IMG/VR virus record: IMGVR_UViG_3300006162_000032
Strand: one strand, 5' to 3'
DNA: 36,278 nucleotides
Source of the DNA: a virus
Below are positions 1,403 through 30,859 of this stretch, in pieces. Numbering within the stretch: position 1 is the first letter of the stretch; the number at the start of each line of letters is the position of its first letter. The translations under genes and the position numbers were made by a program. The notes beneath the pieces were generated by a model that made no database searches, had not been told where the DNA came from, and saw only the letters and a program-made list of their open reading frames with translations.

Positions 1403-1626
1403 AAAATTCCGACGTTCCACGCTTTATCCAGAACTTTCGGGTCAAACAGGGTGGCGGGGTGCTCCCCGGCCCCGGTGTCCCGGAGCAAATCGACTTTGCC
1501 CAGTTACAGGGTAAGGCAAAGTTGTCCAGTGGCGCGTATATGAATAATGCCTTTGCCCGTGCCATTCTCAAGGCACTCCATTTCGTCGAGGGTGACGACG
1601 GCGTGTTTCACAAGGCGGTGGAGTAA
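1399..1626 (+). CDS. hypothetical protein (75 aa)
   Basis: ATGA overlap with upstream gene. Confidence 0.45.
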   Translation: MKNSDVPRFIQNFRVKQGGGVLPGPGVPEQIDFAQLQGKAKLSSGAYMNNAFARAILKALHFVEGDDGVFHKAVE

Positions 1627-1739
1627 TGCTTCATAAAGACTGGTTACTTACCGTCGATGGCCAAAGAACGCTTGCCTGGTTATTGATGCTTCAATTCTGG
1701 CAACGAGGTTACCAGAAATATTGGGGGTGGGAACGATGA
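1626..1739 (+). CDS. hypothetical 37-aa protein
   Basis: TAATG overlap upstream and ATGA overlap downstream (translational coupling); below ORF-track length cutoff. Confidence 0.3.
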   Translation: MLHKDWLLTVDGQRTLAWLLMLQFWQRGYQKYWGWER

Positions 1740-2238
1740 GCATCGTGGCATGCCGGAGGGTGGATGGCAGATTTGAAATCGCCGCCGATAGTATATTTGT
1801 ACGGGGATGGACCCAGGGAAAAGACCCATCCGTCAAGTTGTGGTGGATAGGTCAGATGATCGCCGGTTCTTGCGGCGCTATGTCATTAGGTGGTTGTTCC
1901 GCGAGTATATCGAGAATCATCAACCAAAGACTAACAACGAATGGGGTTGGATAAACTTCATGTCGGAGTTCACCAAGTATGTTGTTGGCCTGGATAACCG
2001 GATCAATTACCATGATAACGATTTCATCGTGGTGTGGCAGGGTCGCGCATTTGAAATCGACGGAACACTCACCGTCCACGAGATTACTGATTTCGCGGCC
2101 ATCGGGGCGGGTTCCGACTTCGCACTCGCCGCCCTTCACCTGGGCAAGACGGCCACCGAGGCCTGCGAAGTTGCGTGTAAATTGTCTGTTATGTGCGAGT
2201 TACCGGTGGTCACCATGTTTGATAAGGAAGGCCAATAA
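1736..2238 (+). CDS. HslV/ClpQ-like N-terminal-nucleophile (proteasome-type) peptidase, interrupted by a -1 frameshift near 1885-1905
   Basis: Frame-2 part (MSIVACRRVDGRFEIAAD...VKLWWIGQMIAGSCGAMS) aligns to the HslV N-terminus (TTIVSVRRNGHVVIAGDGQ...[24 protein letters not shown]); frame-1 part (FREYIENHQ...FAAIGAGSDFALAALHL) aligns to HslV FERKLEMHQG...IAIGSGGPYAQAAARAL; ATG 1736 overlaps the upstream stop. Confidence 0.5.
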
Positions 2239-2520
2239 TGGAATATCCCAATAAGATTTATGTTTGGTTTGACCCCGTTTCAAGTCAGTTTGAATTTGCC
2301 GCCCAAGATCAATGGGCGCAATTGGCGAAGGTCGGGCAACCGCGCCGGGGCAACCGCGCCGGGGCAACCGCGCCGGGGCAACCGCGCCGGGGCAACCGCG
2401 CCGGGGCCACGGGAGGTCGACCTCTCGGCCAACGCCACGATGATATTTGGGGAGGATGATTGGGATGATTTGCACCGCGCGGTGGAAGAGGCGCGGATGA
2501 TGTTGGAGAAGAAATCATGA
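2238..2520 (+). CDS. hypothetical protein interrupted by a frame-switching 14-bp tandem repeat (N-terminus in frame 0 from ATG 2238, C-terminus in frame 1 ending 2520)
   Basis: Good RBS (AAGGAAGG) only at ATG 2238; the frame-1 ORF (2260..) has no RBS but ends in an ATGA overlap with the next gene; five 14-bp units (70 bp) separate the two frames. Confidence 0.4.
2337..2406 (+). repeat. perfect tandem repeat (CAACCGCGCCGGGG) x5, unit 14 bp
   Basis: directly visible; unit length not a multiple of 3. Confidence 0.9.
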
Positions 2521-2720
2521 AAGACTTATTCTGGAAATTGCGAAGTTGGTTCCTGGGCCTTTGCGTGATCTGTGGCACGGAACTCGTCTTCGGCGATAAT
2601 ATCTATGAAGACATGGAAGAACATTGGTATTGCCCCAATAAGCAATGTCCAGACTCGGAACTATACGAAGGCCCAGTGGGGTCTAAAGACTCCGGGCCTT
2701 TCGACCCTACCTCAGTGTAG
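2517..2720 (+). CDS. small Zn-ribbon protein (CxxC ... CPNKQC)
   Basis: ATGA overlap with upstream gene; two Cys pairs. Confidence 0.5.
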   Translation: MKDLFWKLRSWFLGLCVICGTELVFGDNIYEDMEEHWYCPNKQCPDSELYEGPVGSKDSGPFDPTSV

Positions 2721-2782
2721 AACCGCCCGATCCGATCCTACCGAAATCCGTAGACTGTCTTCCCATTTTTAGTATCTCAGTG

Positions 2783-2798
2783 TGTCTAAATTTAGACA
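2783..2798. promoter_or_regulatory. 16-bp perfect palindrome TGTCTAAATTTAGACA (operator-like) immediately upstream of promoter
   Basis: perfect inverted repeat, AT-rich surroundings. Confidence 0.45.
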
Positions 2799-2825
2799 GT
2801 TGAAAAATGAGTGAAAAAATATTTT

Positions 2826-2854
2826 TTTTCATCAAGGCATAACTAGGTTATAAT
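2826..2854 (+). promoter_or_regulatory. candidate sigma70-type promoter (-35 TTTTCA, 17-bp spacer, -10 TATAAT at 2849-2854) with A/T-rich upstream tract
   Basis: consensus -10, spacer 17, UP-like A/T run at 2800-2830. Confidence 0.45.
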
Positions 2855-2860
2855 GGATAT

Positions 2861-4080
2861 GTCCAATCTAACGGATTATGGTTAAGGCACCAGGGAAGAC
2901 CAATAGGAGCCCTACCTGGTGACCTTGTGGATCATTGAAATCTAGATTCGGTAGTTCGGAACTGAGTCCGAGTACCCAGCAAAGCGCCTGTCACGGGACG
3001 GTCTGGGAAAAGGGAATAGGGAAAAACTGAGTACCTTCTCAGAATGAACGGCCGATTAAACCTCTACTTGACGGACACCCGTGAGATTCGAGAGAATCTA
3101 AACCCTGGGACCGAGGAAACTCCCGTCATCAGAGATCGTAAGAGAAATCCAGAAGCACGAAGGGCGATTACTGTAATATCTGCCAATCTTCAGAAAAATC
3201 CGAGATTAGAGACACTCGGGCCAACCTCAGACCCTACCGGGGACGGAGAGTCCATTGAAAACTCGTAAGAGTTTGGAACGGTTCCAACGGCGGGCGGGAG
3301 GTAAGAATATGTTGACATCCCAGTTGGCTTTAGAAGATTTAAGGCGTGGGCCAAACCCCACAGTGGAGTTCACAGGTCGTACCTCACGGTCTTCGGGAAG
3401 TCCCGGATGGCGCGATTAGTATTCTGACCGCCGGATAGGACGTACCGATTTTATCTGGTCACGCCGGAATAAGCGAAATGCGATAAAGCCAGGCGTGAAG
3501 TCCACTACGACCGAATCAGGTCCCAAGTCCTGAGCATGTAGGTTATAAAGAGTAGTGGCAAAATCTAGGTTCAAACTCCCGGCAATCGGGAGAATCTATT
3601 GACACAGAGGGCCTTGCGAGTAGGAGTCGCGAGAATCAGGTGTTTCGATAAACCTGGTTCTTAAAGTGGTGATCCCAGTTAGACTGGTTGCTAAACCCCA
3701 CGAAAAGCGAACCGAAAGACGGACGGTTGTCAACGATCTACGACCCAAGTAAGAATGTCAGAGTGCCCATCGCGGACGGTACATTCCCAAACAGTTGAGC
3801 GGCGTTATGCGCCCCGGATCAACTAGAAAGATGAAACCTTTTGGAACAGAATGCCTAAATAACTCCGGTGCACAATTTATATCGGAGTTGGGATGGTTTC
3901 CAAGATTACTGAGACAATTGTATAGTCCATAGATTACCAAGGGACTCTCCTCCCGATGGTAATCGCTGTGTATGACCGTAAGGTCATGCAGAGGGGCGAC
4001 TGTTAGTAGGGACTCTCCTCCTGAATACAGTCGTTAATGCGCCGTGGGGCGGAAAATCCAATCTGAGAATAAAACCTCTC
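2861..4080 (+). ncRNA. candidate large structured non-coding RNA (or very long structured leader); no credible ORF across 1.2 kb
   Basis: no ORF >75 aa and no SD-ATG pairs. Dense local hairpins, many with GNRA loops: AAACTC-GTAA-GAGTTT 3259-3274, ATGACC-GTAA-GGTCAT about 3971-3986, CTCCCG-GCAAT-CGGGAG about 3586-3602, CACCAGG...CCTGGTG 2889-2924. Duplicated GGGACTCTCCTCC (3943, 4009) complementary to GGAGAGTCC at 3247. Confidence 0.3.
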
Positions 4081-4149
4081 AGATTGCCATACCAAGCCAC
4101 GCCAGTCCCAAGCCTGGATAAGAGCACCGGGAACAAGGAGAGGAACACA

Positions 4150-24311: not shown

Positions 24312-25456
24312 AGTTTCGAGATTATGTCGACCAGGATACATTAAGAAAGTACCTGGATGAAAAAATTGTGACGGTTCGTTTTCATCCCCGTGCGCCCCTG
24401 GCAATATACAATTATGGCCGACGTGCACAGTTCGAAAACATCTGGGACAATGTCACTGTCCGATGCCGTGGGTTGATCGTGGATCAAAAAATGGGCGACG
24501 TGATCGCCCGCCCATTTGAGAAATTTTTCAATTTAGGTCATCAAGGAAGACCAGAGACGAATTTTGAAAACTTGCCGTCGGAGGAACCAGAGGTTACTGA
24601 AAAAATGGATGGTAGCCTGGGAATTTACTATCGGTACGGTGATCTGTCGGGAATTGCCTCACGGGGTTCTTTTGACTCTGAACAGGCCCTGTGGGCAACT
24701 CAATGGTATAAAATTCATTTGATAGATTCTCAATGGCCGGAAACTTTTACACCTCTATTTAAAATTGTCTACCCCGGCAATCGCATCGTTGTTAAATACG
24801 ACTGGGAAGGACTCATATTACTTGGCATGGTTGAAAAAGAATCGGGTCGGGAATTATACCACCGGCATCTGGTTGGTTACGGCCAGAAAAATAACTGTCG
24901 AGTGGTTCCATTGTTCAATAAGTCTATTGCCGACTGCCGGACTGAGGAACAAAATAACGCCGAGGGTTACGTCGCAACTTGGAACCATGGACTGCCCCGA
25001 CCTCCCCTAAAAATAAAAATCAAATTTATTGAGTACCGTCGTCTTCATCGGTTAATGACCGGCAGATCTCCCAAGGAAATATGGAGGATGCTGAAAGACG
25101 GGGAAGTCTTCGATGCCGATGTACCGGAGCACTATGCCGAGTGGTTACGGGGCTGGAGAGAATTACTTTTGGGTGAGTATTACCGACTGGAGACAAAAGC
25201 AAAAAATATCTACGACACTTGCGACTTGGAAAAAGATGGTCAGAACAAAGATTCCCGTCGAAAACTGGCGGAATACTTTAACCGGGTTGAGCATCGTGAG
25301 GTCAACGGAGTTCTTTTCAAAATGTTGGACGGCGAATCCTACCAGGAAATTATCTGGAAACTTATCAAACCTCTCACAAAGAGTTATGATCCTTTTCGAG
25401 TCGCCGGCTTGATTTTCTTCGGGTCGACTTTTTTCGCCTCGGCGGTTAGCGAATAG
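24308..25456 (+). CDS. ATP-dependent polynucleotide (RNA) ligase-like nucleotidyltransferase
   Basis: motif I KMDGSLG (KxDG), motif IV-like AEGYVATW, motif V LKIKIKF (KxK); no DNA-ligase OB/extended domains; ATGA overlap. Confidence 0.55.
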   Translation: MKFRDYVDQDTLRKYLDEKIVTVRFHPRAPLAIYNYGRRAQFENIWDNVTVRCRGLIVDQKMGDVIARPFEKFFNLGHQGRPETNFENLPSEEPEVTEKMDGSLGIYYRYGDLSGIASRGSFDSEQALWATQWYKIHLIDSQWPETFTPLFKIVYPGNRIVVKYDWEGLILLGMVEKESGRELYHRHLVGYGQKNNCRVVPLFNKSIADCRTEEQNNAEGYVATWNHGLPRPPLKIKIKFIEYRRLHRLMTGRSPKEIWRMLKDGEVFDADVPEHYAEWLRGWRELLLGEYYRLETKAKNIYDTCDLEKDGQNKDSRRKLAEYFNRVEHREVNGVLFKMLDGESYQEIIWKLIKPLTKSYDPFRVAGLIFFGSTFFASAVSE

Positions 25457-25843
25457 ATGTTGAGGTTTTCGGCGGCAAAATGCAGCGGCGGGGCAAGCAT
25501 TAAATTTGGGAATTATATAGTTAACTCCCTTGCGGGAGAGAAAGTAGGTCACGTGAAAGAAAATAAATTCATCGCAGAATCGGGATGGCCGCAAGTGCAT
25601 GGTCAGATTTCAACCGTCAGTTTTCAAATCCAATCTGGGCCGATCAAGGAGTTTGGCGAGAACGGATGCCAGATCGACGATGTGATCGAGTGGGCGAAAG
25701 AGAAGATCGAAGGTTTCAACAAGGCTTTCCCCTGCCGAGAGAACTCTGTAATCATCACCAAACTCGACGAGGCGCTTCTGTGGTCGCTGAAACGCAAGAT
25801 GGATCGAGAGAAACGCAGCGTCGAGGGAACCAATAAGGCATGA
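25457..25843 (+). CDS. hypothetical protein (128 aa)
   Basis: ATG immediately after ligase stop (TAGATG). Confidence 0.4.
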   Translation: MLRFSAAKCSGGASIKFGNYIVNSLAGEKVGHVKENKFIAESGWPQVHGQISTVSFQIQSGPIKEFGENGCQIDDVIEWAKEKIEGFNKAFPCRENSVIITKLDEALLWSLKRKMDREKRSVEGTNKA

Positions 25844-27441: not shown

Positions 27442-29976
27442 ATTGATTCTGGCGCAGAATCAATATGCGTTCATTCAGGACGAGACCAAGGGAAGTGTGA
27501 AGGTCCACGTGGGGCCGCTTACCGTCACTCCGTCTGGCAATGACCGCCCGGTAGTCTATGATAACGAGACCCGTCGTTTTATTCAGGCAACTTCTTTGAA
27601 AGAGGCCGTACAACAGAACACCACCGTCGATGAGGGTTCTTATGTAATTTTGGAGAACCCCGCCGACAAGGGCAACAATCCGCCGGCCGGCGCCTCTTCA
27701 CTGCCGACTGATTTACAGATTGGCCGTAAGATCAATATTCCTGGTCCGGCGACCTTCGCCCTTTGGCCGGGGCAAAGTGCCCAGGTCCTAGAGGGACATC
27801 AGCTTCGTTCCAATGAATACCTGGTGGCCCGCGTCTACGGCGTCGAAGAGGCCAAGAAAAATTGGCCGACGGTCGGTACTCGCCTTCCCGAGTTGCCAGA
27901 TAATTTGGCCACCGGACAATTGCTTGTGATTCAGGGAACAGACGTCAACTTTTTCATTCCTCCCACGGGAGTAGAGGTACTCCCCGATCCGGTGACCAAG
28001 ACACAGTACATTCGTTCTGCGGTGACCCTGGAACGATTGGAATACGTGATTCTTCTTTCAGAAGATGGCAACAAGCGTTATGAAATCGGACCCAAGGTGG
28101 TCTTCCCACTGGCCACGGAAAAATTTGTTACCAAGTCTGACGACGGACGGGCCGGTATCAAACAGAAGGCCATCGAGTTGACTGACCAGATGGGTATTTA
28201 TGTTAAGGTTATTGCCGACTATGAGGATACCACCAACTTCCTTGGTCCCAATAACACTCCGTTGGGCCGGCGGGAATCAAGTGCCGAGGCGGCACCCGTC
28301 GAGGGTCGGCGACCTCCAAAATCAGAGAACAAGTATTCTTACAAAGTTGGTGATGAATTGTTCATCACCGGCAAGCAACAACGCATCTATTACCCTCGGT
28401 CGGAACACGCCCTGATTGAGTATGATGGCGAAGATGCCCAGGGAAATAAGTTCAAACGGCAGCGGTATTATGCCGTGGCCATTCCCGAGGGTGAGGCCCG
28501 TTATGTTCTGGACAAGATCACGGGTAAGATTGACAAGGTATCGGGACCGCAGGTGTTCCTTCCCGATCCTCGTTATCAGACCATTGTGCGTCGTATTCTG
28601 AGTGACAAGGAAGTTTCTTTATGGTATCCGGGCAACTCTACCGCCGTGGCCTTCAACCAGGCCCTACGGGCAACTTCCCAGGACGCCACGATGGACTTTG
28701 TCCAGGATATGACTCATAATACAATGGACCTGGAACGATCGATGAACCGTATGACCAAAGGTTCTCCGATCATGGCCAGTAACAGTTATTCCGGGGGTAC
28801 CGGAGTGTGTTGGCCGGGGCCGCGGGGGAGACTCTGCGGCGATCCGGAAAATACACCCCGCCTCCGTCGTTGACCCTGAACACGAAATACGACGGGGTAC
28901 CCGTCGTTGAACCCTGGACGGGTTATGCCGTCCAGGTGGTACGCCGCAATGGAAGTCGGCAGGTTATCAAGGGGCCGGCCTCGATTCTTCTGGGATATGA
29001 CGAGACTCTGGAACGGGTGACGTTGTCCACCGGAAAACCCAAGACCACGGACAAGCCGATGGAAACGGTTTATCTGCGGGTAGACCATAACAAGGTTTCC
29101 GATTTTGTTACAGTCGAGACTCGGGATATGGTCAACGTAGAAATCTATGTTTCCTACCGGGTCAATTTTGAGGGCGACGCCAACAAGTGGTTCTCTGTTG
29201 AAAACTACGTGAAGTTCCTGTGTGACCATCTTCGTAGCCTTTTGCGGGCGAAGGTAAAGCACCTGACAATCAAGCAGTTCATTGATTCCTCGTCGGCCAT
29301 CATCCGGGACACAGTGCTGGGCGAGCCGAAGGACGGCAAGCGGGCGGGAAAGGTATTTGACGAGAACGGGATGCGCATCTATGACGTCGAAGTCCTTCGG
29401 GTAATGATCAAAGATGATACCATCTCCGGCCTCATGGTCAAGACCCAACGCGACACCGTACAACAAACTTTGAATCTTTCCGCCAAGGAAAGTGAAAAGT
29501 TGTTGACGGAGAAACTCACCGAACTGGAGATGGCCCTGGCAGATTTGAATAAAGCCTCAAGTCTGCATACGATTGAAGTGGAGAAGACCATCGCCCAGGC
29601 CAACGCCGACTTGTCCATGCAAAAAGAGGAGTCGGTACGCGAACGAAGTATCAGGGCCAAGAAACATGATGTGACGATCGCCGAGATTTCTCATCAGGTG
29701 GCCTCGGAGAATCTGGCCGTCGACGAGGCCCGGGCGGAGCACGAACAAAAGGTACTGGAGGGAGAAACGGCCGAGTATGTAAAACGACTGGCCGCGATTT
29801 CTCCGGAACTGGCAAAGGCCATTGTTCTCATTGGAAACAATGACCTTGCCGAAAAACTGGCCGAGGCGGTCGCGCCCCTGGCCGTGGTGGAACAACAGGG
29901 GATCGGTCCGATTTTGGGCCGTATCTTTCATGGAACACCGGTAGAAAAGATTCTCAACCAGATCGAAGACAAATAA
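27422..29976 (+). CDS. major vault protein (MVP) homolog: MVP repeat domains + SPFH-like shoulder + cap-helix coiled coil; reading frame broken near 28790-28830
   Basis: Part 1 27422..28873: GEARYVLDKITGKIDKVSG vs human MVP NEGIYVQDVKTGKVRAVIG; YKVGDELFITGKQQRIYYP vs VVAGDEWLFEGPGTYIP. Part 2 28807..29976: GVPVVEPWTGYAVQVVRRNGSRQVIKGPASILLGYDETLERVTLS vs [45 protein letters not shown], followed by a coiled coil. G-runs (ccggggg, cgcggggg) at the junction. Confidence 0.65.
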
Positions 29977-30030: not shown

Positions 30031-30288
30031 ATGCAAGATGTCATGGAAGTACCGGCGGGAAAACATATTATCCATACTTTGGATAATACCGGAGATACCC
30101 GGTCGATATGGGACTCTGGAAGTGCAGATGAAACGGCCGCGGCCCGGAGGATGTTTGAAGACCTCAAGGGAAAACGGTACATTGGTTATAAGGCCGAGGG
30201 AAAAGACGGCCGCAAGGGAGAAGTATTGCAGAAATTTGATCCCGAGGCCGAACGCATTATCATGGTGCCACCCCAGGTGGGAGGTTAG
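30031..30288 (+). CDS. hypothetical protein (85 aa), downstream of MVP homolog
   Basis: CAAGGAGAGACAC-ATG. Confidence 0.5.
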   Translation: MQDVMEVPAGKHIIHTLDNTGDTRSIWDSGSADETAAARRMFEDLKGKRYIGYKAEGKDGRKGEVLQKFDPEAERIIMVPPQVGG

Positions 30289-30289
30289 C

Positions 30290-30859
30290 ATGGCGATGAC
30301 CTATGCGGTTTGTTATCCGGACCCATTTTGGGTACAGTGCAACTATGCAACCGGTGCCACTGGAAACTCGGTAACTTGGGATGCCTGGAATTATTTTTAT
30401 TCCGGAGCAAGTACGGTCGCAACCGGCGCAACCGGGAACGTTATTTATCAGTGGCAAGTATGGAATAACGCCTACCAAGAAACAACCAAACAACAACGGG
30501 CGCGAATTACGGCAGAACGAGAGGCCGAACGAGTTCGACTGGCCGAGGCCGCGGAACATGACAAGAAGGCCCAGGCCCGAGCGGAAGAACTTTTGTTTTT
30601 GTTCCTGACCCCGGAACAACAGAAGATGTACAAAGAAAAGGGTTACTTTGACACGGAGGTGAACGATAAACAATACCGTCTGTACAAGGGTCGGGCCGGT
30701 AACGTACGGAAGATCGAGAACGGCAAAGAGGTAGACAAACTTTGCGCCCATCCCGTGCCGTCTCTTCCCGATGCCGACAATGTCCTTGCCCAGTTTCTGG
30801 CGCTTCATACCGACGAGGCGGCCTTTAATCAACTGGCCAACCACACCAGATTAAACTAA
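30290..30859 (+). CDS. hypothetical protein (190 aa) with internal ATGATGN-W-rich duplication and charged helical segment
   Basis: GGGAGGTTAGC-ATG 2 nt after upstream stop; ORF-track longer N-terminus overlaps previous gene. Confidence 0.5.
   Translation: MAMTYAVCYPDPFWVQCNYATGATGNSVTWDAWNYFYSGASTVATGATGNVIYQWQVWNNAYQETTKQQRARITAEREAERVRLAEAAEHDKKAQARAEELLFLFLTPEQQKMYKEKGYFDTEVNDKQYRLYKGRAGNVRKIENGKEVDKLCAHPVPSLPDADNVLAQFLALHTDEAAFNQLANHTRLN

Follow-up and report, generated by a model that had tools for sequence, protein, structure and literature searches.

A proteasome-like peptidase gene, probably inactivated by a recent frameshift, in a phage-like sequence from IMG/VR

The window considered here is the whole 36,278-nucleotide stretch of IMG/VR virus record IMGVR_UViG_3300006162_000032, and its subject is a gene for a proteasome-like peptidase at 1736-2238 on the + strand. 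This gene is probably a recently inactivated copy (a pseudogene) of a single-gene, AAA+-independent peptidase from the "group I" branch of proteasome relatives, to which HslV and the Betaproteobacteria proteasome homologue (BPH) belong. The family as a whole is a mobile accessory gene of many phages; in the clonal phage population represented here the gene is most likely non-functional. The intact reading frame needed to make the enzyme is lacking, with a -1 shift after codon 53. The original prediction, made from the letters of the window, had named a real frameshift in a decayed pseudogene as the outcome that would speak against it, and this is the outcome that the evidence favors, the lesion being the same in every assembly.

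The lesion in the Leu54 codon

The peptidase locus consists of two overlapping + strand open reading frames (ORFs). The upstream ORF runs in frame 2 from ATG 1736 to TAA 1954 and encodes MSIVACRRVDGRFEIAADSIFVRGWTQGKDPSVKLWWIGQMIAGSCGAMSLGG (MSIVACRR...AMSLGG) followed by 19 out-of-frame residues, CSASISRIINQRLTTNGVG. Frame 1 is open from 1792 to TAA 2236-2238, and from 1894 it encodes LFREYIENHQPKTNNEWGW...AIGAGSDFALAALHLG...DKEGQ. Restoration of one base yields a 167-residue protein composed of M1-G53 (1736-1894), Leu54, and F55-Q167 (1897-2235). The base is absent from the Leu54 codon at 1894-1896, within GGT GGT [T]TG TTC (1889-1899); its loss moves the reading out of frame 2 into frame 1, a -1 shift. 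Such a shift had been proposed for 1885-1905, and the alignment now narrows it to a 12-nt site within that interval. The parts of the locus are as follows.

1723-1732 (+): Shine-Dalgarno-like G-rich stretch GGGGGTGGGA, 3 nt 5' of the start codon; read from the sequence, with a presumed function
1736-1894 (+): peptidase N-terminal segment, codons M1-G53, frame 2, holding Ser2 (Ser1 once Met is removed), Asp18, Lys34, and Gly44/Gly47; from translation, homologue alignment, and family conservation
1889-1900 (+): frameshift site ggtggttgttcc; from comparison with the intact relative P0003 (locus L003)
1895-1954 (+): out-of-frame tail CSASISRIINQRLTTNGVG of the upstream ORF, with its stop TAA at 1952-1954; from translation, with no counterpart among homologues in the alignment
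1897-2238 (+): peptidase C-terminal segment, frame 1, F55-Q167 plus TAA 2236-2238, including helices H1-H4, the AIGAG motif, and conserved C154 and P157; from translation, alignment, and the AlphaFold2 (AF2) model
1960-2238 (+): fragment P0004 called by gene finders, 92 residues, MSEFTKYV..., whose ATG lies 5 nt past the stop of the upstream ORF

Where the intact DNA of P0003 reads GGT GGT CTA TTT CGT GAA TAT (G G L F R), the window reads GGT GGT TG TTC CGC GAG TAT. Intact relatives at 60-64% identity read ...SLGGLFREYIENH... uninterrupted across the lesion point, and the three closest of them continue through the junction as ...A(S/A/V)(L/V)(G/S/A)GLFREYIENH(K/R)PK.... Beyond the lesion, 115 codons are still open with every conserved residue and motif in place, which implies that the lesion is young. 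The product as it stands has 53 native residues and a 19-residue nonsense tail; judged by the structural model, none of the four helices is left in it and only half of the beta-sandwich.

Whether the missing base belongs to the genome or to its assembly can be judged from seven stretches, the window and six contigs, drawn from at least five datasets: ENA ERZ28007521 (71.7 kb, megahit k141), JGI 3300006052, 3300021861, and 3300027911, and Logan SRR5581440. With the shifted allele defined as GGTGGTTGTTCC and the unshifted form expected as GGTGGTTTGTTCC (or CTG), the two-base "TG" junction is identical in all seven. A scan of JGI metagenomes with a pattern permitting 1-4 junction bases recovered the two-base shifted allele alone and no intact allele, and the same approach applied to IMG/VR gave zero matches. 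The flanks of all six contigs are 100% identical to the window and therefore point to one clonal population, while a 14-nt repeat 440 bases downstream varies in copy number between assemblies, so that these are not copies of one another. Agreement among the assemblies indicates a genuine lesion that has become fixed in this population; it says nothing of selection.

A consensus or assembly error would instead mean that the true genome reads GGT GGT TTG TTC in an intact 167-codon gene, with the T lost as an artefact or through shared reads. We regard this as unlikely. The change is a single base within a short T run (TTT to TT), the frame downstream is wholly intact, and the identity of the contig flanks may mean that the contigs are not independent, all of which an error could accommodate. 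However, the allele is common to six contigs that come from differing pipelines (ENA megahit k141, JGI, and Logan) and sample accessions, those assemblies differ at the nearby 14-nt repeat (2, 4, or 5 copies), and a run of two or three bases is not an error-prone homopolymer in short-read data.

Programmed recoding can also be envisioned, in which a -1 (or +2) shift at GGU GGU UGU, perhaps aided by the Shine-Dalgarno-like AGGUGG, would yield some full-length peptidase. The open and conserved -1 frame, the AGGTGG string at 1887-1892, and the stability of the allele between samples would all suit such a mechanism. It is nonetheless very unlikely, since no X XXY YYZ slippery heptamer is found at 1885-1900, a Gly tRNA on GGU would be unable to re-pair on UGG, and folding of the 80 nt that follow gives no more structure than in shuffled sequences (z = 0.28). 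Moreover, about 90 related loci are single ORFs, intact relatives keep the junction in one frame, and P0005, the one further relative with a shift, carries its break at another site. A programmed -1 frameshift was accordingly rejected, with heptamer, downstream structure, and conserved two-frame layout all missing.

Least probable of all is a split enzyme, in which the 72-residue N-terminal fragment and a 92-residue C-terminal fragment re-initiated at ATG 1960 would associate into a working or regulatory complex. The close succession of the stop at 1952-1954 and ATG 1960, the presence of GGGGTTGGA before that ATG, and the fact that gene finders call the 92-residue fragment are what such an arrangement would predict, and re-initiation at ATG 1960 may occur. 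Against this, the two fragments jointly lack residues 54-75, which in the model comprise the whole of helix H1 and the beginning of H2, the first of them carries the 19-residue nonsense tail, and the layout is absent from all relatives examined. Recent inactivation by loss of one Leu54-codon base, leaving a truncated product, thus stays the preferred account of the locus.

One further broken copy was seen, in a relative at 56% identity (P0005, at L102 2740-2780). It is frameshifted elsewhere, within the AIGAG motif, at GCG ATC GGC GCG CC GGC ATG GAC, and the remainder (MDFALAALHLGHSAK...) lies in another frame; the observation comes from a single Logan contig. It hints that the peptidase gene is readily lost in this subclade.

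Fold, active site, and family identity

A protein search with the joined sequence returned 43 relatives, nearly all of them intact single ORFs of 162-176 residues, at 95-99% query coverage. Against intact proteins of 162-166 residues the repaired protein scores E-values of 1e-58 to 3e-60 over 95-96% of its length, a relatedness that by these scores is far beyond chance. The assignment to the proteasome/HslV superfamily, already made in the original prediction, is upheld by a match to phrog_1040 ("peptidase HslV family", E 3.6e-19, residues 14-160) and by a proteasome-type fold. Good matches of both halves to HslV itself had also been expected, and these did not materialize. The NCBIfam equivalog models for HslV, TIGR03692 and NF003964, gave 12.2 bits (cut-off 157.75) and 11.6 bits (cut-off 137), which places the protein outside HslV proper. 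The Pfam search suggested as a check gave no match: neither the two halves nor the fused protein matched any Pfam family, PF00227 (Proteasome) included, and only five of 41 relatives matched PF00227 (best E 1.3e-5).

The AF2 model of the repaired protein, built with 41 relatives, has a pLDDT of 93.7 and a pTM of 0.89. Its strands and helices follow the order of proteasome beta subunits, with H1 at 49-61, H2 at 69-86, H3 at 127-135, H4 at 140-150, and no H5; the modeled fold is the alpha-beta-beta-alpha sandwich of those subunits. Foldseek comparison with the PDB placed BPH of Thiobacillus (5ovs) first (TM-score 0.85, E 3e-12), then HslV (about 0.7), then 20S beta subunits; there were more than 1000 matches at E<=0.001, and the best 50 were all BPH, HslV, or 20S beta subunits. 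The same order came from searching the PDB sequences with a profile, which found BPH at 8e-6 and 2e-5 and Thermotoga HslV at 4e-3. Two designed toroidal repeat proteins that topped this last search were dismissed as low-complexity artefacts in which one helix is matched repeatedly.

In the profile alignment Ser2, Asp18, and Lys34 fall on Thr1, Asp17, and Lys37(33), the type of triad that a structural check had been meant to look for. The window gene has Ser2, Asp18, Lys34, and Gly47. Conservation was counted over 181 full-length family members.

Position 2: Ser in 163/181, Thr in 17/181
Position 18: Asp in 181/181
Position 34: Lys in 180/181
Position 47: Gly in 181/181
Position 125, center of the G-x-G motif: Ala in 134/181, Ser in 28/181

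The protein is therefore predicted to be a proteasome-type N-terminal-nucleophile (Ntn) hydrolase with a Thr/Ser nucleophile, Asp17, Lys33, and Gly47. The observation that Met is followed by Ser and not by Thr was correct, while the suggestion that Ser might signal an inactive protein was not: the family starts Met-Ser in 90% of its members, so Ser1 is the family norm and no indication of inactivity.

By analogy with the chemistry of BPH, HslV, and the proteasome, and from the conservation above, intact members would have their initiator Met removed, exposing Ser1 as the nucleophile, with Lys33 and Asp17 assisting and Gly47 forming the oxyanion hole. Subunits would probably form a double ring without an unfoldase. 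The conserved active site suggests the role of a specific protease, which might, at an early stage of infection, degrade or process certain proteins of the host or the phage.

Several points weigh against the picture of a recently inactivated peptidase. The perfectly kept downstream frame, which speaks for a young lesion, would equally be expected from recoding or from an enzyme built of two pieces. The lesion was read from assembled contigs, which may conceal an intact allele at minority frequency or a systematic error in the consensus. The identical flanks bespeak one clonal population, perhaps with partly shared read sets, and agreement across such assemblies is weaker than independent evolutionary conservation. 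As to the enzyme, the family's peptidase activity is deduced from sequence; BPH is inert on standard substrates (PMC5777263); and the Ser of the Gly-Ser-Gly motif that bonds to the nucleophile is Ala here (Ala125) and in 74% of the family.

Known relatives, distribution, and genomic context

The closest solved relative, both in structure and as a natural profile match, is BPH (PDB 5ovs, 5ovt, 5ovu; Fuchs et al. 2017, PMC5777263). The two share the absence of a propeptide, with Met removal exposing the nucleophile, the absence of a partner unfoldase, and a compact subunit without C-terminal H5. They differ in that identity is just 15-19%, and in length, with about 166 residues here and 185-201 in BPH. 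A long acidic pore loop follows H2 in BPH (PMC5777263), whereas the model predicts a short loop at residues 87-94, and in the alignment BPH has additional residues at this place. Ser-139 of the BPH Gly-Ser-Gly motif is replaced by Ala; in BPH and the proteasome the Ser at that position hydrogen-bonds residue 1 (PMC5777263). The hosts here are phages, Chloroflexota, and candidate-phyla-radiation bacteria (CPR). An N-terminal Ser also occurs in BPH outside Betaproteobacteria and in CodW of B. subtilis (PMC5777263).

HslV (ClpQ) has the same fold and the same Thr/Ser1-Asp17-Lys33-Gly47 arrangement, and its name is used for family members in JGI and PHROG annotations. It differs in that the equivalog models fail on the window protein and in that no hslU lies beside the gene, either in this window or at about 100 related loci. 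CodW requires its ATPase for activity (PMC5777263).

In the survey of Fuchs, Alva, and Lupas (2021, PMC8665760), "group I" comprises homologues radiating from BPH, namely HslV, AAH, CPH, and PPH; these are compact, lack a propeptide and H5, and occur in and spread through phages. The present family fits this group. Two of its members, PPH and AAH, are found commonly in phages; PPH is termed "the first true viral member" (PMC8665760). With 167 residues and an H2 at 69-86, the window protein does not belong to PPH, whose length is about 140 residues and which lacks helix H2 (PMC8665760). It may equal AAH or CPH or be an unnamed family; the taxa found (Chloroflexota, CPR, and Rhodothermales) differ from those to which the names AAH and CPH refer. 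A separate family of about 144 residues (L029 4707-5138, L098 4737-5171, L100 4704-5138), beginning MT(T/V)I(V/A)WDGK.LAADKQ... (for example, MTVIAWDGK...), weakly matches only the C-terminal third of the query and has one copy in a Polynucleobacter genome; its size and Thr1 start fit PPH (Fuchs et al. 2021).

The original prediction held phage-borne members to be rare, a view overtaken by the numbers. Narrow peptide patterns found 72 viral loci in IMG/VR, 41 viral structures in BFVD show this fold, the family has its own PHROG, and a published survey treats such proteins (PMC8665760). An exhaustive profile search gave 217 clusters (50% identity) at E<=1e-30 and 624 at E<=1e-10, almost all of 160-175 residues and starting at profile position 1, from which we infer that there is no propeptide; one cluster (P0021) occurs on 70 contigs. 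In cultured phages, tblastn found relatives at 21-41% identity, most at 21-28%, and no close relative (>=60% identity). Such distant relatives in cultured Vibrio, Escherichia, Aeromonas, Klebsiella, and Microbacterium phages are named "peptidase HslV family", "proteasome subunit", or "protease"; among the annotated genes are those of Vibrio phage henriette 12B8, Escherichia phages nieznany and tuntematon, and a Microbacterium phage "protease". Phage-borne proteasome homologues have thus already been described, and the gene in the window is a further, damaged example.

The same patterns found 20 loci in species-representative genomes, mostly metagenome-assembled genomes (MAGs) of Anaerolineae/Chloroflexota, CPR (Minisyncoccia, Saccharibacteria), Rhodothermales, and Syntrophorhabdaceae. 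In bacterial MAGs the family is present as a lone gene (L008/L009 6001-6501, from Anaerolineae MAGs, and L010-L028), and in L008 the peptidase sits amid ordinary cell-envelope and sugar-metabolism genes, not phage genes.

The absence of an HslU partner, remarked on at the outset, extends beyond the window. No AAA+ or Walker A protein was found among the window ORFs. When 1491 ORFs from about 100 loci (+/-5 kb) were clustered all against all, no recurrent Walker A or AAA+ neighbor emerged; 11 proteins carried a Walker A motif and none was HslU-like. The recurrent neighbors all come from one phage lineage (21-30 loci each) and by sequence inspection alone look like dUTPase, DnaQ-like exonuclease, and glycosyltransferases. 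A conserved partner gene was considered and discarded, the small proteins upstream of the peptidase in the window, L003, and L006 being mutually unrelated. Besides the peptidase, three window proteins match related loci (the sigma factor, the RNA ligase, and a 273-residue ORF at 30038-30859); none of these adjoins the peptidase, hence no synteny is shared. PADLOC defense models matched neither the peptidase nor its neighbors, and PHROGs returned nothing meaningful for the small neighboring genes. The gene behaves as an accessory gene that stands alone, set among genes of early infection, host takeover, or nucleotide metabolism.

A bolder proposal, which we put forward tentatively and consider doubtful on present evidence, is that the family forms a distinct, unnamed branch of group I, marked by Ser1, Gly-Ala-Gly, about 166 residues, and no unfoldase. 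Its members would act as stand-alone specific proteases in phages, CPR, and Chloroflexota, for instance against a host protein early in infection, and the present phage population would be a natural knock-out. If so, the peptidase and the neighboring out-of-frame repeat gene (see the section on neighboring genes) would be a small block being switched off or lost.

By itself the gene is of little importance, and the main value of the analysis lies in correcting an annotation. Public contigs annotate the gene as fragments of 92 or 143 residues; these are one frameshifted gene, nearer BPH than HslV. The gene appears to be dispensable in at least one phage lineage. The wider family, abundant in uncultured phages and with strictly conserved catalytic residues, is a reasonable target for studies of unfoldase-independent proteasome relatives.

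Neighboring genes and other features of the window

In its overall make-up the window resembles a phage: the genes that can be trusted (long ORFs and ORFs that match known families) are all on the + strand, and cumulative GC skew rises steadily across it. Its products include a sigma factor, a DNA methyltransferase, an Rnl1-type RNA ligase, an SNF2 helicase, and ThyX. When 8 kb of it were compared by Megablast with a cultured-phage collection, there were zero nucleotide matches. The peptidase gene had been described as coupled to neighbors on both sides, and the overlap strings ATGA (1736-1739) and TAATG (2236-2240) are both present. It had also been given a start at 1626, which has to be moved to 1736, the upstream part being a separate and unsupported ORF. 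The two adjoining features are as follows.

1626-1739 (+): 37-codon ORF whose TGA overlaps the peptidase ATG (ATGA); from the ORF list, unsupported as a gene
2238-2520 (+): downstream small gene whose start overlaps the peptidase stop (TAATG); out of frame through a 14-nt tandem repeat at 2334-2403

The upstream ORF of this pair is Trp-rich and takes up the 110 nt that separate a 75-residue gene from the start of the peptidase. Gene finders called nothing there in contigs L001, L002, or L106, the ORF has no PHROG or family match, and it may perhaps be a mere spacer with a ribosome-binding site.

Within the small gene that directly follows the peptidase, the repeat unit is GGGCAACCGCGCCG, present in five copies in the window and in L106, four in L104 and L108, two in L001, and at least three at the end of contig L002. 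The N-terminal (MEYPNK...) and C-terminal (...MMLEKKS*) parts of the gene would be in frame only with 0, 3, or 6 copies, and none of the complete alleles qualifies; the C-terminal part is ATGA-coupled to the following gene. The variation could represent a phase-variable-like switch, ongoing decay, or trouble in assembling the repeat.

No credible ORF is found from 2720 to 4084 (1.36 kb). Straddling the downstream edge of this stretch, at 3987-4117 (+), is a match to the Twister-P5 ribozyme whose 30 bits fall short of the gathering score, 37.6 (E 3e-4 for a search over 0.8 kb). The candidate keeps the conserved cores GCAGAGGG, UAAUGC, and CCAGUCCCAAGCCUGG and has a well-paired inserted hairpin of about 60 nt, and an independent minimum free energy fold reproduces the twister helices (z = -2.5). 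It is probably a real twister-type ribozyme. A second, weaker Twister-P5 match, also sub-threshold, lies at 3494-3532 (+; 22.9 bits), and the GTCCCAAGYC motif occurs in the window at the two twister sites only (0.16 expected).

Farther along, the ORF at 28807-29976 (+), of 389 residues, matches the shoulder domain of Major Vault Protein (PF11978, E 4.8e-27), with a weak match to the vault repeat and no PHROG match. Finally, an 86-nt inverted duplicate links window positions 25391-25476 with 5641-5725 of contig L001 at 95% identity; the two copies are about 28 kb apart, and on the source contig the L001 copy precedes the start of the window by about 2.4 kb.

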